Source of the DNA: Candidatus Hydrothermales bacterium
Lineage (GTDB): Bacteria; Hydrothermota; Hydrothermia; Hydrothermales; JAJRUZ01
Reading direction: 5' to 3'
Assembly: GCA_039630575.1 (NCBI GenBank)
Contig: JBCNUW010000001.1
Span: forward strand, 120,473 to 184,472
DNA length: 64,000 nt
Part shown: positions 27,691 through 42,821 of the stretch, one piece after another
Layout of the letters: each line of letters starts with the position of its first letter
Numbering within the stretch: the stretch's first letter is position 1
Program-made: the position numbers and the translations under genes
The notes under the pieces: generated by a model
The model's input: only the letters and a program-made list of their open reading frames with translations
What the model was told of the DNA's origin: nothing
The model's database searches: none

Positions 27691-29112
27691 CTAATCTATT
27701 TTAATAACAACAATCTTTTCATCAACAAAGTCTCTTAATGCATATTTTGGTCCCTCTCTTCCAAGACCCGAACCTTTAACTCCTCCGTAGGGCATATGAT
27801 CTACTCTAAAAGATGGTATGTCATTTATTATCACACCACCAACTTCAATTTTTCTTGAGAGTGTTAATGCTCTTTTAAGATTATTAGTCAAAATTCCACA
27901 TTGTAGACCATACTCAGAATTGTTAACTTTGAAAACCAGTTCATCCTCTGTTACAAACTCATTACAGACAGCAAGTGGAGCAAAAGCCTCTTTGGCACAA
28001 ACATCACAGTCTTCCGGAGCATCAACAATTAAAAGAGGATATAAAAAGGAACCTTCTCTCTTTAATTCTGGTAGAACTTTTGCTCCTCTTTCGATTGCTC
28101 TTCTTACCATTTCTTCTGCTTTTATAGCAGCATCTTCGGAGATCATGGGTCCCATATCAGTATCTTCTTTCAGTTGATCTCCAACTTTTAAATTTTTTAA
28201 AGCCCTTATATAGTCATCGATAAACTTTTCTTTAATTTTTTTTTCAACATAAATTCTTTGAATGGAAATACAGACTTGTCCTGCAATTGAATAAGCTCCT
28301 TTTAATATTCTGTCGAGTATTACTTTGTAATCAAAATCTGAAAATACACATAAAGCTGAGTTTGAACCAAGTTCAAAAGTCTTTTTCTTTAATCCAGCAA
28401 TTTTAGATATTCTCTCTCCAACTTCCTTTGAACCTGTAAAGCTTATATGCCTTATTCTTTGATCTTTGCATAGGTATTCACCTACAGTTCCACCACCTCC
28501 TGTTAGGAATGAGAATCCTTCAGGAGGAAAACCTGCTTCTAAAACAATTTCAGTTATAATTTTTCCAGTCATAGGTGTAAAGCTTGACGGTTTAAAGATC
28601 ACACTACAACCTGCTGCAATGGCTGGAGCAATTTTATGAAGTGCAAGATTAAGTGGAAAATTAAAGGGTGTTATGGCTAGGACAAGTGGGTCAGGTTCCA
28701 TAATTGTAAAAGCCATCCTCCCTTTTCCAAATTCAGAAGCATCCATAGGAATATACTCTCCATAGATCCTTTTTGCTTCTTCAGCGGAAAATGTAACAGT
28801 CTCAATTGCTCTTTTTGTTTCAAATCTTGCTTCATTAATTGTTTTCCCTGATTCAAGCGAAATAACTTTTGAAATTTCTTCAAATTTCTTTTCGATTAAA
28901 TCTTTGACCTTTAAAAGAATTTTATATCTTTCATAAGATGAAAGTTCTTTTACGAGGCTCCTTTTTTCTACAAGATAAGAGAGTGCCCTTTCAATCTGCT
29001 CATTAGTTGTTTCAGGAAATTCGTATAAAATTTCTTTAGTTCCCTTTTTATAAACAGAAAAAAACTTACTTCCCTCTTGCCATTTTCCTTCAAAAAAAAT
29101 TTTCTCTTTCAT
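27691..29112 (-). CDS. NAD(P)-dependent aldehyde dehydrogenase
   Basis: AITPFNFPLNL, FTGS, ELGSN, GQVCIS, EAFAP, PYGGVKGSGLGREG; SD AGGAGGT supports a start at 29112. Confidence 0.93.
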   Translation of the reverse strand: MKEKIFFEGKWQEGSKFFSVYKKGTKEILYEFPETTNEQIERALSYLVEKRSLVKELSSYERYKILLKVKDLIEKKFEEISKVISLESGKTINEARFETKRAIETVTFSAEEAKRIYGEYIPMDASEFGKGRMAFTIMEPDPLVLAITPFNFPLNLALHKIAPAIAAGCSVIFKPSSFTPMTGKIITEIVLEAGFPPEGFSFLTGGGGTVGEYLCKDQRIRHISFTGSKEVGERISKIAGLKKKTFELGSNSALCVFSDFDYKVILDRILKGAYSIAGQVCISIQRIYVEKKIKEKFIDDYIRALKNLKVGDQLKEDTDMGPMISEDAAIKAEEMVRRAIERGAKVLPELKREGSFLYPLLIVDAPEDCDVCAKEAFAPLAVCNEFVTEDELVFKVNNSEYGLQCGILTNNLKRALTLSRKIEVGGVIINDIPSFRVDHMPYGGVKGSGLGREGPKYALRDFVDEKIVVIKID

Positions 29113-29156
29113 ATTTACCTCCTTATGCAAAATAGTTTATAATTTTATGAAAATCT

Positions 29157-30320
29157 ATGGGAAATATAAAAATAGTTTCAGCTGAAAATGATAGAGATTT
29201 AGAACTTTTTATAAAAACTCAAAGTGAAATTTATAAGAGTTTACCACTTGTTGGATATGTAGAACCTTTAAAAGTTTTAGAGATGAATCATTTAAATCCA
29301 AGAGGTCACAATCCTCTTTTCAAGAAAATGTTTGTAAGGTATTTTATTGCTTTAAAGAATGATAAACCTGTAGGAAGGATTAGTGCATATAAGGTTTTTC
29401 ATAAGGTTTTTGGTATTGACGAAAAGATTACAGGTTTTTTTGGACATTTTGAATCAATTCCTGATAAGGAAGTTGCTTCATTGTTGCTTGAAAGTGCGCA
29501 GAGTTTCCTTAAAAGTTTAAATTGTGAAAAAATAATAGGTCCTGCGAGTTTTGCATATGATGGTGTTTACGGTGTTCAAATCAAAGGTTTTGAATATCTT
29601 CCGATGGTTATGACTCCCTGGAATCCTGAGTACTATTCTGATCTCATTGAAGAATGTGGATATAAGAAAATGATAGATTTTTTGGGTTGGTTTATCCCTT
29701 TATACGTAATCCATCCAAGACTATCTAAAATTGTGAGTGTAGAAGATAGACTCTATAGAGAAAATGGTATAAAAATTAGAAAGGCAAATTTAAAAAATTT
29801 TAAAGAGGAACTTAAGAAGGTAAAGGATATATACAATAGTGCTTGGGAAAACAATTTTGGAACAGTTCCTCTTGAAGAGGAGGATATTGAGTACATAGCA
29901 GAGAATCTAAAACCTTTAATTGTGAATGATGGGGCATTAATTTCAGAGATAAAAGGTGAACCTGTAGGAGTTGCCATAGGAATTCCTAATTTTCTTGAAG
30001 CGATAAGGGATTTTAAGGGTAATTTAAATCCTCTAAACACAGTTAAACTTTTATGGCGTTTAAACAAATTGCCTTTCTCATCTGGTATTCCAAGACTTAA
30101 ATCGGCAAGACTTTTAATCCTTGGAGTAAAAAAGGAGTATCAAGAGGGTGTAGGTGTTTTGATGGCAGCAAAAATTTTACTTAAGGGTTATGAGTTTGGT
30201 TATAAATACGGAGAAGGCTCTTTAACTTTAGAGAATAATTATGATATTAACAATTTAATAAGAAGGTTAGGAGGCTTGCCTTATAAGATTTATAGGGTAT
30301 TTTATAAAGAAATTTCTTAG
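29157..30320 (+). CDS. GNAT-fold acetyltransferase (YghO-like)
   Basis: PVGRISA, GFFGHFE, PWNPEYY, IYNSAWENNFG, RLLILGV, LENN, YKIYRVF. Confidence 0.75.
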   Translation: MGNIKIVSAENDRDLELFIKTQSEIYKSLPLVGYVEPLKVLEMNHLNPRGHNPLFKKMFVRYFIALKNDKPVGRISAYKVFHKVFGIDEKITGFFGHFESIPDKEVASLLLESAQSFLKSLNCEKIIGPASFAYDGVYGVQIKGFEYLPMVMTPWNPEYYSDLIEECGYKKMIDFLGWFIPLYVIHPRLSKIVSVEDRLYRENGIKIRKANLKNFKEELKKVKDIYNSAWENNFGTVPLEEEDIEYIAENLKPLIVNDGALISEIKGEPVGVAIGIPNFLEAIRDFKGNLNPLNTVKLLWRLNKLPFSSGIPRLKSARLLILGVKKEYQEGVGVLMAAKILLKGYEFGYKYGEGSLTLENNYDINNLIRRLGGLPYKIYRVFYKEIS

Positions 30321-30341
30321 TTTTATCTTATAATTATAAGA

Positions 30342-30608
30342 ATGGGAGAAAAAAATTTCTCATTTTTTGAATGTAAAAGTTGTGGAACTCCAGTTGGTAC
30401 AAGGAAAAATAAAGAACCAAACTTCTGTCCGCTTTGTAGAGGCAAAATGGTAAAAATAGAAACGGAAATAGACTTAAAAATAAAAATTTCTTGTCCTGAT
30501 TGTAAAAATGAATTTTTAGTTGAGGAAAATTTTGTTCCCTATAAATGTGTATTTTGTAATTTTACTTTTACTGTTTCACCTAACCGTAGATTTGAAGAGA
30601 GACTCTAA
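30342..30608 (+). CDS. Small double zinc-ribbon protein
   Basis: Four CxxC pairs (CKSC, CPLC, CPDC, CVFC) without His; TATAAT 7 nt before the ATG. Confidence 0.7.
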   Translation: MGEKNFSFFECKSCGTPVGTRKNKEPNFCPLCRGKMVKIETEIDLKIKISCPDCKNEFLVEENFVPYKCVFCNFTFTVSPNRRFEERL

Positions 30609-31573
30609 TAAAGTGTACTAAAAATTTGTATTCTTGAATTCATTTGTTCAACAACATAAACTTTATTGTTCCTAACAAAAATACCAGCTGGTAATCTAAA
30701 TTGACCTGGATCCCAACCGATTCCCTCTATACCAAGATAAACGTTCCCATACTTATCAAAAATCTGAATTCTATGAAGGAAAGCATCTGTTACAAAAATA
30801 AAACCTTTATCGTCTACTGCTATTCCCTTCGGTCTAACAAAAAAACCTGGAGCATTACCTGATTTTCCAAAAACACTTATGACTTCTCCCTTAGTGTTTA
30901 AAATCTGAACCCTGAAGTTCCCCCACTCGCATACATAAACATTACCATCTCTATCAATGTTAATACCTCTAGGATAAAGAAATTCTCCTGGTTTGTTTCC
31001 CTTTTTACCTAATGTGTACAGAAACTGACCATCAAGATTAAAAACTTGAATTGCCATAATGCTATCATCGATGACATATAACCTATTTCTATAATCATCA
31101 ACTGTAAGATTTACAGGTTTATAAAGACCCTTTTTTATTATTAAAGACCCTTCAAATTCAGGAAACTTGATACCAAAAACAACACCAGCTCCAGGATCAG
31201 CTACATAGATCATATTTTTTGCCTCAGAAAAAGCAATCCCTGTTGGTCTTATGAATCTAAAATTACGCGAACCAAGATACCATTTAACAACCTTATTTGT
31301 ACAGTCAATAAAAACAATAGTAGAAAAACCAGGATCAGCTACCCAAATTCTTTCCTTAGTGTCAACATAAATTCCAAAGGGATACTTAAAAAGTCTTATT
31401 TTTTTTACTCCAAGAATTCTATTTAACATTCTCTTTACTATGTTAGTTTCTCCAACTACATCTTCTTTTGTGAATAGAAATTTTTCAAATTTTATTTTTG
31501 GGTCTTCAGGTGGTGGTGGCCAAAATATATCGCTTTTTATCTGAATAAAAATAAGAAAAATTAGAAAATTCAT
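30605..31573 (-). CDS. NHL-repeat six-bladed beta-propeller protein
   Basis: WPPPPEDPKI N-terminal motif; repeated PxGIAVD..G..YV.D...RIQIF units. Confidence 0.9.
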   Translation of the reverse strand: MNFLIFLIFIQIKSDIFWPPPPEDPKIKFEKFLFTKEDVVGETNIVKRMLNRILGVKKIRLFKYPFGIYVDTKERIWVADPGFSTIVFIDCTNKVVKWYLGSRNFRFIRPTGIAFSEAKNMIYVADPGAGVVFGIKFPEFEGSLIIKKGLYKPVNLTVDDYRNRLYVIDDSIMAIQVFNLDGQFLYTLGKKGNKPGEFLYPRGINIDRDGNVYVCEWGNFRVQILNTKGEVISVFGKSGNAPGFFVRPKGIAVDDKGFIFVTDAFLHRIQIFDKYGNVYLGIEGIGWDPGQFRLPAGIFVRNNKVYVVEQMNSRIQIFSTLY

Positions 31574-32202
31574 CTCTTTTCCTCCGGTTTATGAGGATTG
31601 TGACATTCAAAACAATTTTCTTCCTTAAAATGAAAATTATTAAAGTGACATTCCTCACAAAGATCCTCTGATTTTAAAAGTCTATTTACACCTCTGTGAA
31701 TTTTATGACAATTTAAACAAGATAAGACAAAATGTTTTGAAAATGAAATAAAAGTAGAAATTTTGAAATGACATTCTTTGCAAAAGGTTAATTCCTGGTC
31801 TCTTAAAAGAAATTTAGAATCTTTCAGATGGGGATCGTGACAAGTGGTACACTTTATTCCCCTTGTTTTGTCAGTTATAAAACTTTTTCCAACAGGATGA
31901 TTGTTTTCATAATACTCTATTCCTAAAAATATTTTTGATGTTTCTGATATTTCGTAAAACTTTCCAATATTGGGGAACAGGTATATAAGAAAGGTCTTGT
32001 TTGTATGACAATTCATACAGTTAAGGGAAATAAAGTCAAAATCTTTAAAAATCTCTCTTAGCTCCTCATGAGGTTGTATTTTAATTAAAAAAGGTCCTTG
32101 GGCATTATGAGAGTTATGACAAACTTCACAGATTCTTTTACCCTCCTCATTCCTGAAGTCATGAACAAATCTTGAAATTATAAAAAAGATAATTAAGGTC
32201 AT
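31570..32202 (-). CDS. Multiheme c-type cytochrome, 7 CXXCH, with an OmcE-like N-terminal half
   Basis: CEVCH, CMNCH, CTTCH, CKECH, CLNCH, CEECH, CFECH; start at the ATGA overlap (MTLIIFFIIS). Confidence 0.9.
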   Translation of the reverse strand: MTLIIFFIISRFVHDFRNEEGKRICEVCHNSHNAQGPFLIKIQPHEELREIFKDFDFISLNCMNCHTNKTFLIYLFPNIGKFYEISETSKIFLGIEYYENNHPVGKSFITDKTRGIKCTTCHDPHLKDSKFLLRDQELTFCKECHFKISTFISFSKHFVLSCLNCHKIHRGVNRLLKSEDLCEECHFNNFHFKEENCFECHNPHKPEEKR

Positions 32203-32996
32203 TTCTTGTGACAAACAGTACATACCGGTTTGTTTGGCCATTTTAAGTGATAACCAAATCGTGTTCCATGGGGATCATGGCAGCTATTACAGAAGAGGTT
32301 ACTTTTCTCAGCAGGATGATTAGCAACTGGATGATGATAACTATAGAGCTCCTTTTCATGACATAATGTGCATAAAATTTGTATTCTATCCTTTAAAAGC
32401 TTATTTTCCATTGAAGAGTGTGGATCATGGCATATTCCACATTCAAACATGGCATAAGGACTGTGAAGATAAAAATCATCTTTTAATTCGTGACAGTTTA
32501 CACATAATTTTTCTTCCTCAGGTTCCTCAAAGATCCTTTTATGACATTCACTACAATTTGGATCATCAAAAGGTGGGTGAAATTTTAGTCCTTTTTCAAA
32601 TTTTTCTTTGTGACATATAAAACAAGAAAGATCTTCTTTTTTTGATACTCTTTTAAATTCTATATCATGACAAGCTCGACAAATTTTCTCATTTTCACTC
32701 CTATGAAACTTATAGGGCTGAAGTGGAGTTTTGAAATTAAAAGAGGGAAAGAAATAAACTGTAATTATCTTAGATTCAGTTTTTTTATTTTTATCATAGT
32801 AAAGTATAAATTCATTTTTACCTAATTTAAGTTCTAAGATAAAGTGTTTAATATTATCAGCTGAGAAGGAATCATATAACATTTCAGGTTTTGAAATCCA
32901 GGCTTTGTCTGCATCTACTATTATCCTAACAAATCTACTTTTAATGAAAGAAATTTCCGGTGGAATTAAAAGCGAAAATAAAATAGAATTAATCAA
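32199..32996 (-). CDS. Multiheme c-type cytochrome, 8 CXXCH, with an N-terminal non-heme domain
   Basis: CRACH, CFICH, CSECH, CVNCH, CGICH, CTLCH, CNSCH, CTVCH; start at the TTGA overlap (TTG 32996). Confidence 0.9.
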   Translation of the reverse strand: MINSILFSLLIPPEISFIKSRFVRIIVDADKAWISKPEMLYDSFSADNIKHFILELKLGKNEFILYYDKNKKTESKIITVYFFPSFNFKTPLQPYKFHRSENEKICRACHDIEFKRVSKKEDLSCFICHKEKFEKGLKFHPPFDDPNCSECHKRIFEEPEEEKLCVNCHELKDDFYLHSPYAMFECGICHDPHSSMENKLLKDRIQILCTLCHEKELYSYHHPVANHPAEKSNLFCNSCHDPHGTRFGYHLKWPNKPVCTVCHKK

Positions 32997-33877
32997 TATT
33001 CTGCTTTTCCGTGACATGCTGGTCCACAAGTTCCCTTTTTTTCAGTTTTTATGAAATCAAAATTTAAGACATAGTTGTAAGGTCCAAATTTTTTACCACC
33101 CTCAACAAGTGCAAAATTTTTTGAAAAGTGAGGGTTATGACAAAAGGAACAAACTATTCCTTTTTCTCTCTTTACATGAACTTTATGTAAGTTTTCCTCG
33201 CCTCTTTTGAAAGAAGATTTCTCAGAAAAAAGATCTTCCAAATTATGACAATTAAAACATAACTCATACTGAAGATGAGTAAAAAATACATAAGGTTTAT
33301 TTGGATACATTGAGTTTAATAACATGGTGAAATTAGATTGATGAGGATTATGACATGTTATGCAATTTTCAATAGGTGGATGTTTATACTTTTTTACTCT
33401 ATACTGTTCTTCCATTTCCTTATGACAATCAAAACATAGTGAATTAGTTTCCCTTAATAAATATGACCTTTTATCATTTCCATGAACATCATGACAACTT
33501 TTGCATTTACCATCAACAAAGGGCGCATGAAAACTTAATGCAGTTTTTGATAGTTCCTTATGACAGCTTGAACATAAATATGGTAGTTTTTCTCTTAGCA
33601 AAAAGTTCAAAGGTGATGAGTGAGGGTTGTGACAATGCGTGCATTTGTTATCGTTTGGGGGGTGTTTAAATTTTGATTTATTTTCATGACAATTTAGGCA
33701 AATACTGTTAATATTTTCAATCTTTTTAAAGGGGTGTTCACCTTCAAGGTTATGGCATAATGAACAATCTTCTTTCACAGGTTGATGTAAAACTCTTTCT
33801 TCTATCAAAATATCATGACAACCTCTTTCTGTGCAATCCCTTTCTTGTGAGATTAAAAAAATTATTAACATAATCAT
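32993..33877 (-). CDS. Multiheme c-type cytochrome, 9 CXXCH plus CX4CH and CX3CH (paired-CXXCH repeats)
   Basis: CTERGCH, CSLCH, CLNCH, CTHCH, CSSCH, CKSCH, CFDCH, CITCH, CFNCH, CSFCH, CGPACH; repeated H.P...CxxCHxPH.S...LL. Confidence 0.92.
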   Translation of the reverse strand: MIMLIIFLISQERDCTERGCHDILIEERVLHQPVKEDCSLCHNLEGEHPFKKIENINSICLNCHENKSKFKHPPNDNKCTHCHNPHSSPLNFLLREKLPYLCSSCHKELSKTALSFHAPFVDGKCKSCHDVHGNDKRSYLLRETNSLCFDCHKEMEEQYRVKKYKHPPIENCITCHNPHQSNFTMLLNSMYPNKPYVFFTHLQYELCFNCHNLEDLFSEKSSFKRGEENLHKVHVKREKGIVCSFCHNPHFSKNFALVEGGKKFGPYNYVLNFDFIKTEKKGTCGPACHGKAEY

Positions 33878-35451
33878 TTTATCTTAAAATCTCTTTTTAA
33901 AAGAAAGTAAAAAACAAAATTGTGCTCCTCTTTTGGGTAAATCAAATAAATATATTCAAAATTTAATTTTAAATTCAAAACGTTATAATTCCTTTCAAAA
34001 CCGACAGTCAAACTGTTTTCGAGCTTATTTCTAAAGTATAACCTCTCCTCTAGAGAAAAAATATTAAATAGTTTTAAAGGAATTTTAAGTGTAAATTTGA
34101 AAAAACTCCTTGTTAATACCAAAAAATCCGTCCTTATATATTCTTGAAAATAAGATAAATTAAGGGGCATTTGCCTAATTTTAAGATCAATTCTTGTGCG
34201 ATATTCAGTCCAAATATTCATCTTACTATTTAAAAAAGAAAAATTCCTATCAAAATTAAAGTTGAGTGTAATAATATATCTTGGTGAATCGTAAATTAAA
34301 GTTAAATTTGTATTAAAACCAAAAATTTTTTGGTTCCTTACAGGCCATTTATCATTGAAAGCTCTATAGTACAAATTATAGAAAAATTTTAAAAATCTAA
34401 AATTCAAGAAAAAATTTTGCTCAAAAAGACCCCTATTTCCAACCAAATAGCCCCACCCTTTTCCTAACGGATCCTGACTGAAAGAAAAGGAAATATAAGG
34501 AGAAAATGTAAAAAATCTAGGGTAATTTAAAAATTTAAGGTCATATATCTGAGCTACTCTCTCATAAAACCTTGTTCCTCTTGGTAAAGAACCTGTTTCA
34601 AAATCTATAAAGGTACTAGAAATTATTCTATCTGAAAAATACTTCTTAAAACTTGAATTTAAACTTTGAGAGGTGAAAATTTTTGATTTTTTAAAAGAGT
34701 AGTAAAAATCAAAAATGTAATCAAAATTTTTTAATTTAATATAATTAAAATTTGAGTTAGTGTAGCCATAGTTCTTTCTGAATAAATATATTATGTTTAA
34801 CTTGATTTTCCTATCTTTAGTGTTATTGTTGTAATTAAAATTTACATTTTCAAATCCTTGACCATAATCTGGAAGTTCTTTTTTGTAATTGAAATAAAAG
34901 GAATGTTTTTTTAAGGAAAAACTTGAATTAAAACCGAGGGATTTTAAAGTCAATAAGACTTCCTTATTATACGAATAGAAAAAATTAAATTTTGGAAAAT
35001 TACTTAAATTAAGGGACTGCGAGATTGTATAAGTTGATTTTTTTTTAGAAAATAATATTTTATTCTCCCTTTTAAGTTCCTCTGTTTTAAAAGAGAATCT
35101 AAAAGGAAAAGAAGTTTTTGAAAAAATACTAACATCAAGAAAAAAGGGGGATTTTAAAAAAATTTTCTCTTTTTCTTTATCTAAATTTTCCTTAAAAACT
35201 TGCCAAATAAAGTATGTTCTAAAGTCGAAAGATATAAATTCTCTTTTATACACAAAACCATTTATAATTAAGTTTAAATAATTCTCATAATCTTTGTAAA
35301 AGGGTTTTGCTAAAGATCTCTCAAATTTACCAAAAGAAAAATATCTCTCTGAAAAGATGCTTAAGTTAAAATTTGTTATCTCAGAATTTAAATTTTTTAA
35401 AAGAAATAAATGGGGGAGAAGAAATATTCTCCCCCATTTTATCCTAAACAC
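33874..35451 (-). CDS. Putative outer-membrane beta-barrel (porin of a porin-cytochrome complex)
   Basis: 525 aa, signal-like N-terminus, aromatic alternating strands, C-terminal FVFYFLLKRDF; lies between cytochrome genes. Confidence 0.65.
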   Translation of the reverse strand: MFRIKWGRIFLLPHLFLLKNLNSEITNFNLSIFSERYFSFGKFERSLAKPFYKDYENYLNLIINGFVYKREFISFDFRTYFIWQVFKENLDKEKEKIFLKSPFFLDVSIFSKTSFPFRFSFKTEELKRENKILFSKKKSTYTISQSLNLSNFPKFNFFYSYNKEVLLTLKSLGFNSSFSLKKHSFYFNYKKELPDYGQGFENVNFNYNNNTKDRKIKLNIIYLFRKNYGYTNSNFNYIKLKNFDYIFDFYYSFKKSKIFTSQSLNSSFKKYFSDRIISSTFIDFETGSLPRGTRFYERVAQIYDLKFLNYPRFFTFSPYISFSFSQDPLGKGWGYLVGNRGLFEQNFFLNFRFLKFFYNLYYRAFNDKWPVRNQKIFGFNTNLTLIYDSPRYIITLNFNFDRNFSFLNSKMNIWTEYRTRIDLKIRQMPLNLSYFQEYIRTDFLVLTRSFFKFTLKIPLKLFNIFSLEERLYFRNKLENSLTVGFERNYNVLNLKLNFEYIYLIYPKEEHNFVFYFLLKRDFKIK

Positions 35452-35478
35452 AATAAAATTTAGAATTTAATTTACTAT

Positions 35479-36111
35479 TTACTTTATATGACAATCAAGG
35501 CAAATTTGACTGTTTGTGGTGTCACCCCTTAAGAAACTATAGGGGGGTTGAGCAACATCTACATTATGGGGATCATGGCAAGTAGAGCAAGTCATCACTG
35601 AATCAGCACCAGGTTGTATACCTGAAAAATTATAGAGTGGATAACCCCATGTTGAAGGAGGGTTAAATTTAGTAGGCGGCAATCTTCCCGGTGCCACATC
35701 CATATCGACTGGATGAGAGTAAATAAGAGTATCATTTGTTCCACTTGTAACATCAGGAGGATCTTGAACAGCTGCACCAACATTCCTTGGACCAAATGAG
35801 TAAAGTGTCCCAAGATCAGCTCTTGTTTGAGTTCCATCATGACAGGAAAGACAAGCATAACTTATCCAAGAGGCTCTTGTCATTGGGTCTGTATAGGTTC
35901 CGTTATATAGAGCTGAAATAGTGGGTACATAAACCCTATTCCAAAGATAATAAAAATTTTGACTGGGATTAGCATTGTGCGGTGTATGGCAGTATATGCA
36001 AACTTGTCCTGCATTGGGTCTGTTAAAATCATGCCTACTTCCTACAATTGTTGCATGAAGCCAAATATAAAAGGTTGAAAGAACTAGAACTACTATAATC
36101 ATTTTCTTCAT
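35479..36111 (-). CDS. Secreted tetraheme cytochrome c, OmcE (nanowire)-like
   Basis: Sec signal; motif order GSRHD, QVCIYCHTPHNA, LWNR, SYACLSCHDG, HPV, PLY, CSTCHDPH, FLR, SQICLDCHIK; eight His in the mature chain; SD AGGAGGT. Confidence 0.85.
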   Translation of the reverse strand: MKKMIIVVLVLSTFYIWLHATIVGSRHDFNRPNAGQVCIYCHTPHNANPSQNFYYLWNRVYVPTISALYNGTYTDPMTRASWISYACLSCHDGTQTRADLGTLYSFGPRNVGAAVQDPPDVTSGTNDTLIYSHPVDMDVAPGRLPPTKFNPPSTWGYPLYNFSGIQPGADSVMTCSTCHDPHNVDVAQPPYSFLRGDTTNSQICLDCHIK

Positions 36112-36135
36112 AAACTTTACCTCCTAACATATAAA

Positions 36136-36148
36136 GGGACTTGAACCC
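36136..36148 (-). promoter_or_regulatory. T-loop-like leader motif GGGTTCAAGTCCC upstream of the cytochrome operon
   Basis: 3-bp GC stem plus 7-nt TTCAAGT loop, 10 nt upstream of the SD. Confidence 0.6.
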
Positions 36149-36204
36149 ATTTAAACTTAATACCTTATTTTTAATTTTACCTTGATTCATAATTCAAATT
36201 CAAT

Positions 36205-36861
36205 TTAAAGAATTATCTTTATAATTGTAACAAAGAGAGAATAAAAAAACCAAAGAAAAAAAGATATGAAAATTCCCTTTTTTCTCTCAATATCACCGAT
36301 GTGATGAAGGGCAAGACCATAAAGAAAAGTCGCCCATAATGTAAAAAATCCAGCCTGTTCGAGGAAAATTCTAAAAAAATTTTTCTCTGATAGGAACAAT
36401 AAAAAGATAGAAAAATTAAGTTTCACATTAGGATTCCCGGTCAAAAGAGCTATAGGAAAAGCAACAATTGATCCTAAAAGATTTATTGCATATATATGAA
36501 TAGCCGAACTGAAAAAAGCAATAAAATCACCTTTTCCTTTAAAAAGTGTAGAGATTAAAAAAAATATAAATCCCAAAGTAAGAGTTTGGATAAAAAAACC
36601 AAATATACTCGAAAAGATTGTCAAAATATAGAATAAAGGTGAACCCATAAATTCCATGGCACGTTCAATAGCCTCTTCTGGTAGATTCCTTTCACTTAAT
36701 ATACTCTCTTTGTTTGGTAAAATTACAAATTGGATATAAAGGAGAGTAATAATTAGAAAAGTAATTAATATTGTAGCAGAGGGTAAAAGAAGAGGTTTTT
36801 TATCCTTTATAGTTTTCAAGGCTTCATTCGGATTATAAAAGATTTTTAAGATTAGATTCAT
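36205..36861 (-). CDS. Yip1-family membrane protein
   Basis: IFYNPNEALKTIKDK start, about five TM segments, FKGKGDF motif. Confidence 0.7.
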   Translation of the reverse strand: MNLILKIFYNPNEALKTIKDKKPLLLPSATILITFLIITLLYIQFVILPNKESILSERNLPEEAIERAMEFMGSPLFYILTIFSSIFGFFIQTLTLGFIFFLISTLFKGKGDFIAFFSSAIHIYAINLLGSIVAFPIALLTGNPNVKLNFSIFLLFLSEKNFFRIFLEQAGFFTLWATFLYGLALHHIGDIERKKGIFISFFLWFFYSLFVTIIKIIL

Positions 36862-36910
36862 TTATTCCTCCTTTTTATTTATAAAAATTTTAAAATAAAA
36901 GATATAAAAA

Positions 36911-38053
36911 TTAAAGAAAAAGCAAAAGTAAAGAAGCCAAAAATGATAAAAGAGAGCATACTAAAAAAGGTACTTTCGTTCCAAAAATTTCCCATAAAAT
37001 TCCAAACAAAAAAGATGCGAATAAAAGACCAAAACCTTGTACAAAGTAAAAAAGTCCAAATCCAGTTCCCTTTTTATCTTCTGGTAAAAAACTTGATACC
37101 AATGCTCTTTCAACTCCTTCAGTTAAGCCAAAATAGAGTCCATAAAGTATAAAAAAAAATATAAAGGAAGAAAAGGAAATAGAATAGGCAAATCCTAAAT
37201 AGGATAAAGAGTAAATTAACCAACCTAAAAGGAGTACTCTCTTTTTTCCAAATTTATCAGCAAAATATCCTGCTGGCAAAGAGCTTAGAGCTTTAATTAA
37301 ATTCAGAACGGACCAAAAAAGTGGAATAGTAATCAAAAGAGCACCCTCATTTTTTGCCTTAAGCAGTATAAAAGTATCAGAAGCATTTGCTATTGTGAAA
37401 ATGAAAAAAATAAAAAGAAATAAATAAAACTTAAAAGGCAATTTAAAATAAAAGGAAAGTTTTTTATCTTTAGTTTTTTTAAAGTTAATTTCTCTTTCTT
37501 TTACAAATATCAGTACAAAAAGAACTGAAAAAAGTCCAGGAATAATTGAAAAATAGAAAATCTCCCTTATTGAAAAGTGCGTCAAAAGTAAAATTGTAAA
37601 CAGTGGTCCTATAAAGGCGCCCAGATGATCCATAGCTCTTTGAAATGAAAAAGCTTTTCCCGATTCACTTTCAGAGACAGAAAGAGAAATGAGGGCATCT
37701 CTTGGAGCACCTCTTATTCCTTTCCCAAGTCTGTCTAAAAATCTTAAAAAAACTACCTGATATAAATTAACAGAAAAACCAACCAGTGGTCTTGTAATAG
37801 CTGCTAAAAGGTATCCTAAAACTATAATTTTTTTTCTTTCTTTAATTCTGTCTGAGATGTTACCTGAGATAAGTTTAAATAAACTTGATGTAAGTTCTGA
37901 AATTCCTTCAACTACACCTAGCCCCATTGGTCCTTTTTTTAAATTCTCAACAATAAACAAGGGAAGAAGGGGGTGAATAAGTTCAGATGCGATATCATTA
38001 AAAAGAGAAGTAAGACCAAGAAAAAAAACATTTTTACTTAGCCACTTTTTCAT
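36911..38053 (-). CDS. MFS transporter
   Basis: SLFNDIASELIHPLLP, DRLGKGIRGAPRDALI, GYFADKFGKK. Confidence 0.9.
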   Translation of the reverse strand: MKKWLSKNVFFLGLTSLFNDIASELIHPLLPLFIVENLKKGPMGLGVVEGISELTSSLFKLISGNISDRIKERKKIIVLGYLLAAITRPLVGFSVNLYQVVFLRFLDRLGKGIRGAPRDALISLSVSESESGKAFSFQRAMDHLGAFIGPLFTILLLTHFSIREIFYFSIIPGLFSVLFVLIFVKEREINFKKTKDKKLSFYFKLPFKFYLFLFIFFIFTIANASDTFILLKAKNEGALLITIPLFWSVLNLIKALSSLPAGYFADKFGKKRVLLLGWLIYSLSYLGFAYSISFSSFIFFFILYGLYFGLTEGVERALVSSFLPEDKKGTGFGLFYFVQGFGLLFASFLFGILWEIFGTKVPFLVCSLLSFLASLLLLFL

Positions 38054-39212
38054 TTTTAAGAACTTTAGTAACTATTATAAAAGATATAAAACCGGGAATA
38101 ATGATTATTCCCCACATTAAAACTGGAATTTTAATAAAAAAATCAAGAATAATTCCACCATAAAAAGGAGCACTTGCCCAACCAAGACCTTCAGCGAGAC
38201 CTAAAAAACCTAGATAAAGATTTTCTTTTCCTTTTTTAGCATAAATTGTTCCAAAGGTTGTTACAATTGGTAAACTTAACATTTCACCGGCAGTAAATAT
38301 AAAAACACATAATGCAAAAAAATAAAAATTTGAAGCAAAAGAAAATAAAAAGTAGCCCAAAATATAGAGTAAAATTCCAAAAATTAAAGAATTTTTGAAA
38401 CCTATACTTTCGGATAATTTTGTAAAAAAAATTTGAAGAATAACAACAGAAGCCCCATTTATTGTAAACAAATAACCTATAAGTGTATTTGAGAGCCCTT
38501 TTTCCTTTGCATAAACTGATAGGGTTGAAATCATCTGCCCTGCTAATGAAAAAAGGAGAAAAATAGAAATAATATAGTAGAAGAAGATTTTATCATCCAA
38601 AATACTTTTTATCTCTAATAAAAAATTTTTATTAGATAAAACTTCCCCTTTGGGACATTTCACCCCAAACTGAATTAAAGGTAAAACAATAAAGGTAAGT
38701 AAAGAAGATACAGTAAAAAGTAAAGTATATGAAAAAGAAGCCAAATATCCTCCTATTGCAGGACCAATTGCAAAACCAAGATTAGTCCCTACTCTTATTA
38801 TTCCATAAGATGAGGGTCTTTCCTTTTCAGGTAAATAAATTCCTACATATGAGTCTGATCCAAGAGCAAAAAGAGAAAAACCTAAAGAATTAAGAACAAA
38901 TCCAAACAGAAATAAAACAGGAGTAACGTTAAATATAATGAAAATAGTAAAAAATAGAAAAGCAAAAAATCTTGACAGAAGACCAAGAACCATAAGATTT
39001 TTACAGCCCAACCTGTCTCCTATGTATCCTGAAGGAACTCTTGAAAAAGCACCTAAAAGAGAACTTAGCCCAACCATAAAACCTATTACTTTCATAGGAA
39101 TTTCCCTTTCACTATAAAGGTATATATTCAAAAAAGGAATAGATACTGAAAATGAAGCAGCAGTGAATGCTCTAGCAATGGAGATAAAAATCACCTCTCT
39201 TTTATTTGACAT
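38034..39212 (-). CDS. MFS transporter
   Basis: GYIGDRLGCK motif A, NLGFAIGPAIGG, 12-TM pattern. Confidence 0.88.
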   Translation of the reverse strand: MSNKREVIFISIARAFTAASFSVSIPFLNIYLYSEREIPMKVIGFMVGLSSLLGAFSRVPSGYIGDRLGCKNLMVLGLLSRFFAFLFFTIFIIFNVTPVLFLFGFVLNSLGFSLFALGSDSYVGIYLPEKERPSSYGIIRVGTNLGFAIGPAIGGYLASFSYTLLFTVSSLLTFIVLPLIQFGVKCPKGEVLSNKNFLLEIKSILDDKIFFYYIISIFLLFSLAGQMISTLSVYAKEKGLSNTLIGYLFTINGASVVILQIFFTKLSESIGFKNSLIFGILLYILGYFLFSFASNFYFFALCVFIFTAGEMLSLPIVTTFGTIYAKKGKENLYLGFLGLAEGLGWASAPFYGGIILDFFIKIPVLMWGIIIIPGFISFIIVTKVLKNEKVAK

Positions 39213-39253
39213 TTTAAATTTTAGGGGTTATATTAAAATAAGGGAGGTAAAAT

Positions 39254-40303
39254 ATGTTAGCCATCCTAATTATAAGTTTACACTATCTTGCAAGTATTGG
39301 TTATAAGGGATTAGGAGTTGATTTTTCAATAGTTAATGAGGAAATATGGGTGAGTTTTCCAATAGAGAACAAAGTTTTAAACTATTCTACATTTCAAGAG
39401 TTTTCTATAAATGAACCAACAGTAATTCTTTACAAAAAGCCATTTACTTATGTAGTAAGTAATTTGGAAGATAAACTTTATACTTTTGAAAACAATTCTC
39501 TTTACTACAGTATAAACATACCAGAAGGTGACTATGTATCAGGCTGTCTACATGAGAATCAAATTTATCTTTTAAGTAGAACTCCAGCAAATATAGTAAA
39601 AATAAATGAAAATTTTGTTTTCACAGTTATGCAAGTTCCTTCCTATAAACCAATTGATTTTAAACCCTTTAAGAATGAGTTTTATATTCTTGATAGAAAG
39701 GCTTCAGCACCAAGTTTAAGAATTTTAAAAATAAATGAAGAGGGTACCATAGTTGGCACACTACTCGACTTACCGGGAGTCTTAGGGGGAGGTTTTGAAA
39801 TTGCGGAAATAAATGGAAATAAAATTTTACTTTTAACAAATGCATTGATGGGTAGAATTTATATTTACTTTTTAGATCCATTAATAAAAATAGATTCATT
39901 TGGAAGCTATGGTGATTCAATTTTTGAATTTAAGACACCAACAAAAATCAAGTATATAAATCAAAAAATTTATATTTTAAACCAAAGAAATTCAAGAATT
40001 GATATATATACTTTTGACAATTTTTATACACCAGAAATAATAGTTTTAAAAGAAAATCCATTTGATAACATAAAGGTATCTAAGGAAGAAATTTTTTTTG
40101 ATTTAAAGTTACCTGAGGGAAATTATGATCTTAACATATTCTCTATTGATGGAAGAAAAATTTTAGAATTAGACAATTTTATTACAGAAAAGGGTTATTT
40201 AAGCTTTAGGATTCCTTTTTCTTTTAAAAGAGGAGTTTATTTTATTATGCTTAAAGAAAAACAAAACAAATTTTTGATAAGAAAGGTTTTTAAAATAAAA
40301 TGA
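39254..40303 (+). CDS. Secreted beta-propeller (NHL-like) protein with a T9SS/FlgD-like C-terminal domain
   Basis: SFGSYG...EFKTPT...NSRIDIY NHL-like unit; CTD YDLNIFSIDGRKI...GVYFIMLK...RKVFKIK; SD GGGAGGT. Confidence 0.7.
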   Translation: MLAILIISLHYLASIGYKGLGVDFSIVNEEIWVSFPIENKVLNYSTFQEFSINEPTVILYKKPFTYVVSNLEDKLYTFENNSLYYSINIPEGDYVSGCLHENQIYLLSRTPANIVKINENFVFTVMQVPSYKPIDFKPFKNEFYILDRKASAPSLRILKINEEGTIVGTLLDLPGVLGGGFEIAEINGNKILLLTNALMGRIYIYFLDPLIKIDSFGSYGDSIFEFKTPTKIKYINQKIYILNQRNSRIDIYTFDNFYTPEIIVLKENPFDNIKVSKEEIFFDLKLPEGNYDLNIFSIDGRKILELDNFITEKGYLSFRIPFSFKRGVYFIMLKEKQNKFLIRKVFKIK

Positions 40304-42234
40304 AAAAAATTGCAATTTTGAGTTCTTTTATCTTTTTAGAGATTTTTGCACTTTCTTATCCTCATAATGACAACTCACCAATAAAAGATTGGGATGTAAA
40401 GTGTAAGTCTTGCCATAGTCCCCATAATGCTTTAGGACCTTATCTTGGTTTAGTCAATGGAAATTACAATATGTGTTATACATTATGTCACAATCCAAAT
40501 GGTGATGCAAAAAACTTTGTAATTGAAGAAAGCAAAAAGGCAATACCCGGAACAACTGGAATTCATCACGCTTTTAATGTTCCTGGAGACAACCAAGGCT
40601 ATGGAGCATCCACATCCTCAGCAGTTTATAAGAACTATTATCCGGGAACTGGCATCGATGCAAATAAGCTTATCTGTTCAACCTGTCATGAACAGCACAA
40701 TCACAATACTGGAAAACCTTTTCTTGTTGCTTCTAATCCTGAGATGATGTGCAGAGACTGTCATTCTCAAAGGGTTCAAAGTTCACGCCCCTTTACAACT
40801 CATCCAGTAGGTATTCCTATACCCTCATCTAATCCGAATTATGTAATACCACAAAACTTACCACTTGTTTATGAAAACCAAGTGGGTTGTATGACCTGTC
40901 ACGATGTTCATTTCGTCTATTCAGATACAAGTGTCTATGGAACTGCGACCTATGGCTCTAAAACATCTTTAACTGACAATACCAAAAACTGGCCAACTAA
41001 TATGTTTGTAGGGTGGGAAATAAAAATTTATCCAGCTGGAAATGATTCAGCAAACTGGTTTCAAATAAGAACAATTATATCGAATACTTTAAATACAGTC
41101 ACATGGTCAAATCCCCTCTATGGATCAGGGATAGTTCCTGGTAACAGGTATGTCATAAGGAAAAAAGGTTCTGGAAACGGTTATCTTCTTAACCAGGTGA
41201 TGCATAAATCTCCAACAAGTAATCTTTGTGGTCACTGCCATAGAAATTTTTCAATTACCGCCTCTCATTTTACAAACACAAACGCAAAGTGGCCAGGCGG
41301 TGAATATGGAACTGATTACGCTTACGTTGATGCTCTTGGAAATTTAGTACCTCCTGCAAGAAGAAGTAGTGCCAGCATAAAAGCAGCCTTACCGACTTCC
41401 TTAAGAAACTCTTGTTTCAACTGTCATTTTCCTCATGGCTGGAGAGATCCTGCAACTGGTTTCTATTATCCAAAACTTTTGGTTGATAGAGAAGAATTTT
41501 TATGTTTTACCTGTCATGATGCAACAGGACCTTCTTCTAAAAATGTCAAGTTAAAATTTGACAGAGCAACAAGATGGGTAACTGCTCCGGTAGGACCTAA
41601 TAACAATTTAAATCTAAACGATAGACACGATATACAAGATTTAGCTCAATCACGTTCAGGTGCTAAAATAGAATGCACTGATTGTCATGATCCTCATAGA
41701 GATAGTGGGTCAATGCCTCTAAAAAGGGATCCAGATCCAACAGATAGTAGAATACCAGGAACAGGTCAAATTTTACCTGGTGGAGACTTTCTTACTGAGT
41801 GGTGTCTTGATTGTCACGATGGTAGTTTTCCTCCAACCATAACCCCACCTACAAGGTCCCTTGTAAATATTAGAAATACATATATCAATAGTGATGTGCA
41901 TGGGCTTATTGTTGGCAATCCAAGATTGAAAGCAGGATACGGTTGGGCGAGTAATCAAATAGTACCATGTGTAGCTTGTCACGCAAGGAAACATATGTCT
42001 TTTAAAAATGATTTATTCCAACTTAAAGACACAGTCTTTTCAAGAGATGGAACAAGATCTATACCAGATGATGACGGACATAACGGTGATAGATATGATG
42101 TTTTAAATAACAACACTCTTGATACAGAAATAAATGGTTATGATTTTTGCAATACATGCCATACAAGAAGCATGGGAAGCAACAGGGAAAATTGTTTTGC
42201 ATCAGGCTGTCACCATCATGGAGATGATTTTTGA
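40300..42234 (+). CDS. Large secreted multiheme cytochrome c, 11 CXXCH plus CX3CH and CX4CH
   Basis: Signal peptide; CKSCH, CYTLCH, CSTCH, CRDCH, CMTCH, CGHCH, CFNCH, CFTCH, CTDCH, CLDCH, CVACH, CNTCH, CFASGCH. Confidence 0.92.
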   Translation: MKKIAILSSFIFLEIFALSYPHNDNSPIKDWDVKCKSCHSPHNALGPYLGLVNGNYNMCYTLCHNPNGDAKNFVIEESKKAIPGTTGIHHAFNVPGDNQGYGASTSSAVYKNYYPGTGIDANKLICSTCHEQHNHNTGKPFLVASNPEMMCRDCHSQRVQSSRPFTTHPVGIPIPSSNPNYVIPQNLPLVYENQVGCMTCHDVHFVYSDTSVYGTATYGSKTSLTDNTKNWPTNMFVGWEIKIYPAGNDSANWFQIRTIISNTLNTVTWSNPLYGSGIVPGNRYVIRKKGSGNGYLLNQVMHKSPTSNLCGHCHRNFSITASHFTNTNAKWPGGEYGTDYAYVDALGNLVPPARRSSASIKAALPTSLRNSCFNCHFPHGWRDPATGFYYPKLLVDREEFLCFTCHDATGPSSKNVKLKFDRATRWVTAPVGPNNNLNLNDRHDIQDLAQSRSGAKIECTDCHDPHRDSGSMPLKRDPDPTDSRIPGTGQILPGGDFLTEWCLDCHDGSFPPTITPPTRSLVNIRNTYINSDVHGLIVGNPRLKAGYGWASNQIVPCVACHARKHMSFKNDLFQLKDTVFSRDGTRSIPDDDGHNGDRYDVLNNNTLDTEINGYDFCNTCHTRSMGSNRENCFASGCHHHGDDF

Positions 42235-42821
42235 ACGAAAGAGTTTATAAATTTCTACTAAAACTTAGGGAAAAATCGATAGATATAGGTATAATGGCAT
42301 TACCTGAGGATTCTGCAAAGTTTTTATATTTTGTTACGAAAATCTACAATAAAGAAAATATAAAAATTGTTGAATTAGGTTCAGGTATTTTATATTCAGC
42401 ATTATGGATGCTCTGTGGAATTCTAAATTCAGGTAAAAATGGAAAAATTTACGCTGTAGAAAGAGAGGAAAAATATTCTAAAATGGGCTTTAACATAATT
42501 AACGAACTTTCTAAAATTTTAAATTTAAATGTTTTTGATATGTTAGAAATAGTTAATGAAGATGTGGTTAACTTAAGGGGTGACGAATTTGGTAACGATA
42601 TCGATATAATTTTCTTTGACATAGACAAAAAACTATATCTTAGAGCTCTAAAAAAATTTGAACCCTTTATAAAAAAGGGAGGATTAATAATAGCCCATAA
42701 TATACTTTCTCACAAAGAAGAGCTCTTAGATTTTATTGAGGAAATAAAAAATGAGGCAAAATATTTTACCTTAATACTTCAAACAGATCCTCAAGGTTTA
42801 TCAATATCGATTAAATTTTAA
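42231..42821 (+). CDS. SAM-dependent O-methyltransferase
   Basis: IVELGSGILYSALW, DIIFFDIDK, GGLIIAHN. Confidence 0.85.
   Translation: MNERVYKFLLKLREKSIDIGIMALPEDSAKFLYFVTKIYNKENIKIVELGSGILYSALWMLCGILNSGKNGKIYAVEREEKYSKMGFNIINELSKILNLNVFDMLEIVNEDVVNLRGDEFGNDIDIIFFDIDKKLYLRALKKFEPFIKKGGLIIAHNILSHKEELLDFIEEIKNEAKYFTLILQTDPQGLSISIKF

Follow-up and report, generated by a model that had tools for sequence, protein, structure and literature searches.

A six-gene operon on the minus strand of a 64,000-nucleotide stretch of Candidatus Hydrothermales bacterium DNA (NCBI GenBank assembly GCA_039630575.1, contig JBCNUW010000001.1, positions 120,473 to 184,472; hereafter the window) very probably represents, in a WOR-3 form, the conserved omcE/uet module for extracellular electron transfer. 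An earlier note, made from the letters alone, had described six co-oriented genes here, and the listing of open reading frames (ORFs) confirmed them at 30605-36111. In operon order they are:

35479..36111, minus strand: OmcE-like tetrahaem cytochrome, candidate filament subunit (210 aa; signal peptide, four CXXCH)
33874..35451, minus strand: haem-less, Cys-free protein, candidate large outer-membrane beta-barrel serving as secretion pore, anchor or cytochrome sheath (525 aa, GTG start)
32993..33877, minus strand: 11-haem cytochrome, MtrA/DmsE-like haem wire (294 aa; nine CXXCH, one CX3CH and one CX4CH)
32199..33029, minus strand: 8-haem cytochrome, MtrA/DmsE-like in its C-terminal 170 aa (276 aa; start ambiguous, at 33029, 33017 or 32996)
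31570..32202, minus strand: 7-haem cytochrome, OmcE-like tetrahaem domain with a 3-haem C-terminal extension (210 aa from ATG 32202)
30605..31573, minus strand: NHL-repeat six-bladed beta-propeller (322 aa)

The tetrahaem cytochrome had been called OmcE-type, and it matched both solved OmcE filaments over its full length in phmmer searches of the PDB: 7TFS from Geobacter sulfurreducens (E 2.4e-14, query residues 28-210 on chain residues 41-232) and 9YUQ from the OmcE bundles of Desulfuromonas soudanensis (E 1.9e-13, 2-210 on 2-218). Its nine histidines comprise one in the signal peptide, the four of the CXXCH motifs, and H27, H45, H133 and H182. Across 125 aligned family members, the eight cysteines and the eight histidines outside the signal peptide are conserved in 124-125, and H27, H45, H133 and H182 are invariant (125/125). 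Four CXXCH motifs plus four further conserved histidines is how membership of the OmcE family is worded in PMC13712944. One haem is ligated across the subunit interface in OmcE filaments, as summarised in reviews, and we infer that His27, which belongs to an N-terminal His-Asp, bridges subunits in the same way; the 7TFS alignment begins one residue past it. Filament formation by the 210-aa protein is plausible. An AGGAGG ribosome-binding site lies 8 nt upstream of the gene, and a terminator-like site follows it:

35408..35439, minus strand: G+C-rich 13-bp hairpin then a U-run, candidate leaky terminator or attenuator

The hairpin is located just past the OmcE-like stop codon and overlaps the first codons of the barrel ORF. 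Its predicted fold has an energy of -27.8 kcal/mol (z -3.87), and none of 200 shuffled sequences was equally stable. All six WOR-3 loci that were folded (the window, L024, L025, L026, L027 and L028) have a strong G+C-rich hairpin at this place; the stem sequences differ, z ranges from -3.7 to -5.0, and again 0/200 shuffles were equally stable. On visual reading of the sequences, a U-rich run follows the hairpin in five of the six. Together, the hairpin and the AGGAGG site would suit a major structural subunit that is produced in larger amounts than its helper proteins.

The 30 haem motifs counted previously (28 CXXCH, one CX3CH and one CX4CH) were exact on recount, and their distribution along the operon is 4, 0, 11, 8, 7 and 0. 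The last five genes had also been described as joined by 4-nt overlaps. This stood for three ATGA junctions, namely barrel/11-haem at 33874-33877, 7-haem/NHL at 31570-31573, and 8-haem/7-haem given ATG 32202. The 7-haem ORF was listed as 31570-32241 (223 aa), and its orthologues begin at the position of ATG 32202, most likely the true start. However, the 11-haem/8-haem junction is a 4-nt overlap solely with TTG 32996 as start. Since the 8-haem orthologues begin further upstream, at positions equivalent to 33029 or 33017, this overlap is more likely 25-37 nt. The candidate barrel ORF begins 27 nt downstream of the OmcE-like gene. The cluster is not a chance pattern, because 5 of the 13 ORFs with at least two CXXCH in the 1.89-Mb genome fall within the window, and because related genomes contain the entire operon with its gene order preserved. 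Promoter-like sites numbered 57 against 58.5 expected, no excess over chance.

The closest named records are candidate division WOR-3 metagenome-assembled genomes (MAGs), in agreement with the affiliation guessed in the earlier note. Two same-genus genomes and one same-family locus contain the six-gene operon together with the upstream Yip1 gene, all in the same order. Identities to the same-genus proteins were 82-83% (subunit), 47% (barrel), 65% (11-haem), 62-63% (8-haem), 58-59% (7-haem) and 78% (NHL), and those to the same-family locus were, in the same sequence, 69, 41, 58, 57, 48 and 73%. Loci L007 and L026 gave identical figures and were counted once. The class relative G087 has a colinear arrangement of an OmcE-like gene, a 536-aa haem-less ORF, a 339-aa ORF, a 685-aa 14-haem cytochrome, three cytochromes and an NHL protein. 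G073, of the same class, has the same first four genes, and then its contig ends.

Outside the phylum, the OmcE-like family gave 2721 matches at E ≤ 0.001, and a species-level genome collection contained at least 598 confirmed stretches with this family. Among the matches listed, the phyla in record titles were Acidobacteriota, Planctomycetota, Bacteroidota, Ignavibacteriota, Calditrichota, Verrucomicrobiota, Nitrospinota, Nitrospirota, Campylobacterota, Pseudomonadota, Thermodesulfobacteriota and others. We kept 77 loci from other phyla (L033-L109), whose flanks were often cut short. An OmcE-like gene with 4-5 haems was present in 58 of the 77, an NHL match in 67 (two or more in 46), a nearby haem-less ORF of 500-830 aa in 49, and a cytochrome of 500-950 aa with at least 10 haems in 52; all four kinds occurred together in 37/77. 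The recurrent order in these loci was OmcE-like, NHL, 5- or 9-haem protein, ~650-aa barrel ending R-x-F, NHL and undecahaem. One of them, L038, has the Desulfuromonadia-type layout.

The other operon cytochromes also have relatives in such systems. In L038, an omcE-type locus, the 10-haem protein shares 34% identity with the 11-haem protein of the window (E 4.5e-42), and the two 8-haem proteins match each other (E 1.9e-18). The 11- and 8-haem proteins of the window match PDB 6R2Q chain A (E 1.1e-18 and 3e-13, respectively), which we take to be MtrA of the Shewanella baltica MtrCAB complex, although the database-search label reads otherwise. Against the TIGR03508 DmsE family, the 11-haem protein scored 90.2 bits (E 1.4e-25), below the cut-off of 192.2, and the 8-haem protein matched the model well below cut-off. 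Judged by sequence, the two are therefore MtrA/DmsE-like, as relatives rather than members of the DmsE family.

The NHL propeller at 30605-31573, recognized as such in the earlier note, matched PF01436 (E 1.6e-22) and PF17170 (E 5.6e-15). It has a hydrophobic N-terminus, a conserved WPPPPE motif and no lipobox Cys. It is 73-78% identical to family relatives, 36% to the G087 protein, 26-39% to the propellers of four other-phyla clusters, and 32% to the L038 propeller (E 1.6e-47). In a phylogenetic tree of NHL proteins, which mixes both propeller paralogues and is not used here to argue for or against transfer, the four family rows formed a starred clade on a long stem. This clade grouped weakly (87, unstarred) with G087 and a Nitrospirota MAG, and not with the Bacteroidota/Ignavibacteriota/Calditrichota clade.

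The operon had been described as a complete module, which was an overstatement. Inner-membrane and maturation parts are encoded on other contigs or upstream of the window, and a second propeller and an undecahaem cytochrome lie at 39254-42234:

39254..40303, plus strand: second propeller, NHL-like six-bladed (residues 3-260), with a weak type IX secretion system (T9SS) C-terminal sorting domain (349 aa)
40300..42234, plus strand: undecahaem cytochrome, counterpart of the UetJ-type member (644 aa; 11 CXXCH, CX3CH and CX4CH)

The ESM Atlas model of the second propeller had template modelling (TM) scores of 0.60-0.69 to NHL propeller clusters, and the Atlas feature matches of its tail to Por_Secre_tail/NHL clusters were 0.91-0.93. 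The gene occupies the same position as the 339/341-aa ORFs of L027 and L028, to which it has a weak BLAST match (E 0.006), and its counterpart in omcE/uet clusters is their second propeller. The undecahaem gene overlaps it by 4 nt and encodes a protein 35% and 30% identical to the 685- and 679-aa cytochromes inside the OmcE operons of G087 and G073. Since counterparts of both genes are found inside those operons, the window arrangement is the same module split by a Yip1 gene and two major facilitator superfamily (MFS) genes. The 644-aa cytochrome occurs in four of the five other family genomes, and the one without it is also without the OmcE-like gene. In hhalign, the OmcE profile matched the 644-aa cytochrome family over 34 columns, in the paired-CXXCH stretch only, so we do not claim a whole OmcE domain in the window undecahaem. 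The window protein has its N-terminal motif order in common with the OmcE-like protein. For 48 counterparts in other phyla, which are cytochromes with 10-11 CXXCH, the alignment to the OmcE-like protein spans 160-260 N-terminal residues (within the first ~400) and takes in most or all of that protein.

The region between the two halves (36205-39212, minus strand) encodes the Yip1 protein and two MFS transporters:

36205..36861, minus strand: Yip1-domain membrane protein directly upstream of the operon (PF04893, E 1.3e-12)

The Yip1 protein is 63-66% identical and adjacent in the family loci L024, L025 and L026. It is a conserved family neighbour, and whether it is part of the system is uncertain. 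The Por_Secre_tail domain had 37 matches in the genome. Two other ORFs of the window look like large T9SS cargo near the cluster: a 754-aa protein that is peptidase-like in its middle part and resembles a T9SS tail at its C-terminus (45824-48088, plus strand), and a 2708-aa ORF with a C-terminus matching Por_Secre_tail (55723-63849, minus strand; match at contig C1:176222-176401).

The 7-haem protein is a second OmcE-related component. The OmcE profile matched its orthologues with a probability of 98.75% (E 1.5e-16, hhalign), placing OmcE residues 26-209 onto residues 13-146, so that the protein consists of an OmcE-like tetrahaem domain and a three-haem tail. Five orthologues share 15 invariant histidines, which is 2 × 7 + 1, compared with 2 × 4 in the OmcE-like subunit. 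Petersen et al. (2026, PMC13712944) expected a filament anchor to bear one histidine above twice its haems, and they state that none of the omcE operons they studied encodes a candidate for the tip or the anchor. By these sequence features, the 7-haem protein is a candidate filament cap, anchor or adaptor. It is rather doubtful that the WOR-3 operon encodes the very cap or anchor reported as not encoded in Desulfuromonadia omcE operons. Under this proposal, the N-terminal histidine of the 7-haem protein could serve the unsatisfied end haem while its own haems are all satisfied, and the protein could close off the wire or tether it to the barrel, with the undecahaem as a possible second end piece of the OmcE-domain kind. 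If true, the proposal would, together with the attenuator hairpin, describe a pilus-like assembly line with an excess of major subunit, minor end subunits and an usher-like barrel.

The 525-aa product of 33874-35451 had been proposed to be a beta-barrel, and both its AlphaFold2 and its ESM Atlas model were barrel-like, at modest confidence. It matched no Pfam or NCBIfam family, including PF11854 (MtrB_PioB). The AlphaFold2 model, from a six-row alignment, consisted nearly entirely of long strands in hairpin order (~23 strands of at least 6 residues). All its top Foldseek matches were outer-membrane barrels (FimD usher, OccK porins and TonB-dependent receptors), with TM scores of at most 0.27. 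The Atlas model (predicted TM score 0.52) had TM scores of 0.77-0.82 to clusters of 570-610 aa, some named outer-membrane proteins, and 0.61 to MtrB/PioB, a fold-level likeness only. With moderate confidence, we predict that the protein is a large outer-membrane barrel. An R-x-F-type C-terminal motif was present in 35 of 64 candidate barrels of the other-phyla loci, and the window barrel ends in KRDF then KIK. A multi-phylum profile built from these 35 barrels matched the WOR-3 barrel family with a probability of 87.7% (E 3.4e-6, 229 N-terminal columns, hhalign), which makes homology to the cluster barrels of other phyla suggestive, not firm.

Parts of the chain that the window lacks were found elsewhere in the genome, which comprises 1.89 Mb in 95 contigs, with 94.7% completeness and 30% G+C. 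A search for cytochrome c maturation genes, recommended in the earlier note, gave candidates for CcmC, CcmE and CcmF. CcmF is located 9 kb before the window on the same contig, and CcmC and CcmE are on other contigs; ResB was not found in the genome search. The recommended search for inner-membrane quinol:cytochrome genes gave cytochrome b561/NapC-type candidates on contig C4:

L003:5499-14509, minus strand: contig C4 electron-carrier cluster, adjoining NuoB/C/D-like genes

This cluster encodes three cytochrome b561-type proteins, one of which has 727 aa with 16 CXXCH and a C-terminal b561 domain. A NapC/NirT-type protein of 638 aa has 18 CXXCH, and the cluster also encodes two proteins with 9 haems each, a member of the VIT1 family and a c554-like protein with 4 haems. 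The C4 proteins are candidates for the quinol end of the chain, as quinol:cytochrome oxidoreductases. In G073, a set upstream of the OmcE-like gene (L028:6099-10292) includes three multihaem proteins, two of them with 5 haems (one of these of 400 aa) and one with 4, as well as a membrane-protein-like ORF of 354 aa and a 178-aa ORF whose N-terminus is twin-arginine-like; the set may encode a quinol oxidoreductase of the bc type or one like the alternative complex. The window's genome has another, smaller porin-cytochrome-like set on contig C3 (L004:835-4546, minus strand), with a 347-aa 8-haem protein whose N-terminus is lipobox-like, a regulator of the ArsR type, a 284-aa protein with 12 haems, a 2-haem ORF and a 364-aa haem-less ORF without a Pfam family.

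Among described systems, the omcE cluster of Desulfuromonadia, as defined by Petersen et al. (2026, PMC13712944), combines OmcE and a large barrel with a pair of propeller lipoproteins and a pair of multihaem cytochromes. The window resembles it in having a tetrahaem protein with four CXXCH and four conserved histidines adjoining a large haem-less candidate barrel, 11- and 8-haem proteins homologous to the 10- and 8-haem proteins of L038, and NHL propellers. However, the window subunit is ~30% identical to OmcE, the barrel has 525 aa compared with 766 aa in L038, and the propellers are without a lipobox, one of them with a T9SS-like tail. The window operon also has the extra 7-haem OmcE-domain protein, its second propeller and undecahaem form a separate divergent unit 3 kb away, adjacent glycosylation genes are missing, and the host is WOR-3.

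The uetABCDEFGHIJ cluster of 'Ca. Tenderia electrophaga' and Tenderiales consists of the tetrahaem UetA, the peptidyl-prolyl isomerase (PPIase) UetB, the barrel UetC, the trihaem c7 proteins UetD/E/G, the cupredoxin UetF, the NHL proteins UetH/I and the undecahaem UetJ (Eddie et al. 2022, bioRxiv 10.1101/2022.05.06.490989). By motif count and domain, and not by direct comparison with the Tenderia proteins, the window shares with it a tetrahaem, a candidate barrel, two NHL proteins and a propeller-adjacent undecahaem. The 15 ORFs scanned at 27691-42821 contained no UetB PPIase, UetD/E/G trihaem c7 or UetF cupredoxin domains, and the window has 11-, 8- and 7-haem proteins in place of UetB/D/E/F/G.

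An MtrA/DmsE-like haem wire beside a large candidate barrel is also reminiscent of MtrCAB/Pcc systems (Shewanella MtrA-MtrB, Geobacter Pcc). However, the window barrel has no PF11854 match, the cytochromes do not reach the cut-off of the DmsE family (90 vs 192 bits), and the operon is without the MtrC/OmcA-type decahaem lipoprotein of MtrCAB. In Desulfovibrio ferrophilus IS5, the loci DFE_0448-0451 and DFE_0461-0465 encode multihaem cytochromes and two NHL propellers, for which a role in stabilising a cytochrome complex of the outer membrane was suggested (Deng et al. 2018, PMC5815863). These clusters, likened here to the window by description only, have no barrel or OmcE-like subunit in the available portion of that account. 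OmcE-like multihaem cytochrome clusters have also been described in peat Acidobacteriota and Verrucomicrobiota (bioRxiv 10.64898/2026.05.27.727921). The window system shares its core with the omcE, uet, D. ferrophilus and peat clusters, and its cytochrome content is closest to the omcE type.

From these components, a path for electrons can be proposed. Quinol-derived electrons would leave the inner membrane via the cytochrome b561/NapC-type multihaem proteins encoded elsewhere in the genome. They would pass to the MtrA-like 11- and 8-haem wires, which may reach into or through the 525-aa outer-membrane barrel, and would then be handed to the OmcE-domain cytochromes at the surface. The 210-aa tetrahaem would be the major subunit, probably polymerising head to tail like OmcE, with His27 ligating a haem of the next subunit, and the hairpin behind its gene would allow more of the subunit than of the helper proteins to be produced. 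The two NHL propellers may be scaffolds or assembly factors, one periplasmic or membrane-tethered and the other probably T9SS-exported. The 7-haem protein and the undecahaem would be OmcE-domain minor components (adaptor, cap or tip).

Several observations weigh against this interpretation. For the barrel, the confidence of the AlphaFold2 model was low (predicted local distance difference test, pLDDT, 44.9). A word-based search of 5.8 billion proteins returned 2 sequence relatives, and a full HMMER profile search of 1.84 billion proteins returned 3, one a 66-aa fragment. No deeper alignment was possible, and the model therefore stayed poor. The link to the barrels of other phyla comes from the single hhalign match described above (87.7%, N-terminal 229 columns). 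With the same multi-phylum profile in hmmsearch, the window barrel scored below zero, and its three WOR-3 relatives scored 5-12 bits with high bias. The WOR-3 family barrel showed no similarity to its positional counterparts in G087 and G073 (hhalign probability 0.1%), and these counterparts matched the multi-phylum barrel family with a probability of 1.5%. The AlphaFold2 model of the tetrahaem, from a 110-row alignment, was also of low confidence (pLDDT 58.1) and mostly coil; its sole Foldseek match at E ≤ 1e-3 was 7TFS (TM 0.37, 31% identity). A complex prediction with two mature tetrahaem copies and 4 haems gave no answer (score 0.02) and speaks neither for nor against. Two propellers were found, neither with an N-terminal lipobox Cys, unlike the description for Desulfuromonadia, and the Pfam match of the T9SS tail of the second was below cut-off (Por_Secre_tail, E 0.0086). 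The OmcE-like gene was found in only 6 of the 272 genomes of the phylum, this one included, and in 4 of 110 genera, so it is not a phylum-wide trait. In a search of sequencing runs, the stretch was present in two DNA runs of one study, labelled hot springs metagenome, and no RNA run was listed for it. Finally, UetA-type tetrahaems were proposed as extracellular cytochromes, with polymers raised as a possibility (bioRxiv 10.1101/2022.05.06.490989), so an OmcE-like sequence is no proof of a filament.

That proposal leads to an alternative that we consider possible, although not probable. The operon could encode a porin-cytochrome conduit without a filament, in which the barrel holds an inserted MtrA-like wire and the tetrahaem, 7-haem and undecahaem proteins are monomeric surface cytochromes. 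This is close to the main model of the uet paper, in which UetA and UetJ are extracellular cytochromes at a barrel conduit, and it suits both the MtrA-like character of the 11- and 8-haem proteins and the TM score of 0.61 between the Atlas barrel model and MtrB/PioB. However, the tetrahaem matches both solved filament subunits end to end and keeps the N-terminal His-Asp, with a histidine that is invariant in 125/125 members and would bridge subunits. The strong ribosome-binding site and the terminator-like hairpin likewise fit a high-copy structural subunit.

If the operon does encode an omcE/uet-type module, its electrons might flow inwards, with Fe(II) minerals, sulphides, a partner cell or a cathode-like surface as their source, and the module would then not serve to dispose of respiratory or fermentative electrons. 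Uet was proposed to take up electrons in electroautotrophs, and the cluster, first defined in Tenderiales that oxidise cathodes (bioRxiv 10.1101/2022.05.06.490989), is also present in iron-oxidising Gallionella (PMC10734462); moreover, multihaem wires are reversible in principle (PMC10734462). The small genome (1.89 Mb), the peptidase-like and T9SS-cargo ORFs and the earlier view of a peptide-degrading organism would be better suited to electron disposal, although they carry no direct weight against uptake, and we regard the uptake direction as unlikely. A redox system that acts in the periplasm or on soluble substrates, for example to detoxify metals, sulphur or nitrogen oxides, and takes no part in extracellular electron transfer is highly improbable: Paired_CXXCH/c3/c7-type multihaem cytochromes also serve soluble reductases, but the operon proteins contain no catalytic domain or CXXCK motif, they show specific homology to OmcE and MtrA, and their linkage to an outer-membrane barrel and propellers is tight and conserved across many phyla.

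The novelty suggested in the earlier note was overstated. A full-text literature search, with the supplements of key papers outside it, found no link of WOR-3 to OmcE or to multihaem extracellular electron transfer, and WOR-3 is not among the five phyla for which PMC13712944 lists homologues in an omcE context. However, the module itself is in print as the omcE (PMC13712944) and uet (bioRxiv 10.1101/2022.05.06.490989) clusters, with loci in many phyla. Because the described cluster type turns up in so many phyla of the genome collection, its mere presence in WOR-3 is no surprise.

For structural studies and materials research, the window offers a presumably heat-adapted and very compact variant of OmcE, with a subunit of 210 aa and a barrel of 525 aa. 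In addition, the 7-haem OmcE-domain protein and the conserved hairpin are handles on how OmcE filaments start, end and anchor, a question raised in PMC13712944. If the system works as proposed here, cytochrome-wire electron transfer would extend to WOR-3, an uncultured small-genome hot-spring lineage usually read as fermentative, and these bacteria could dump electrons on minerals or partner cells, or take electrons up.

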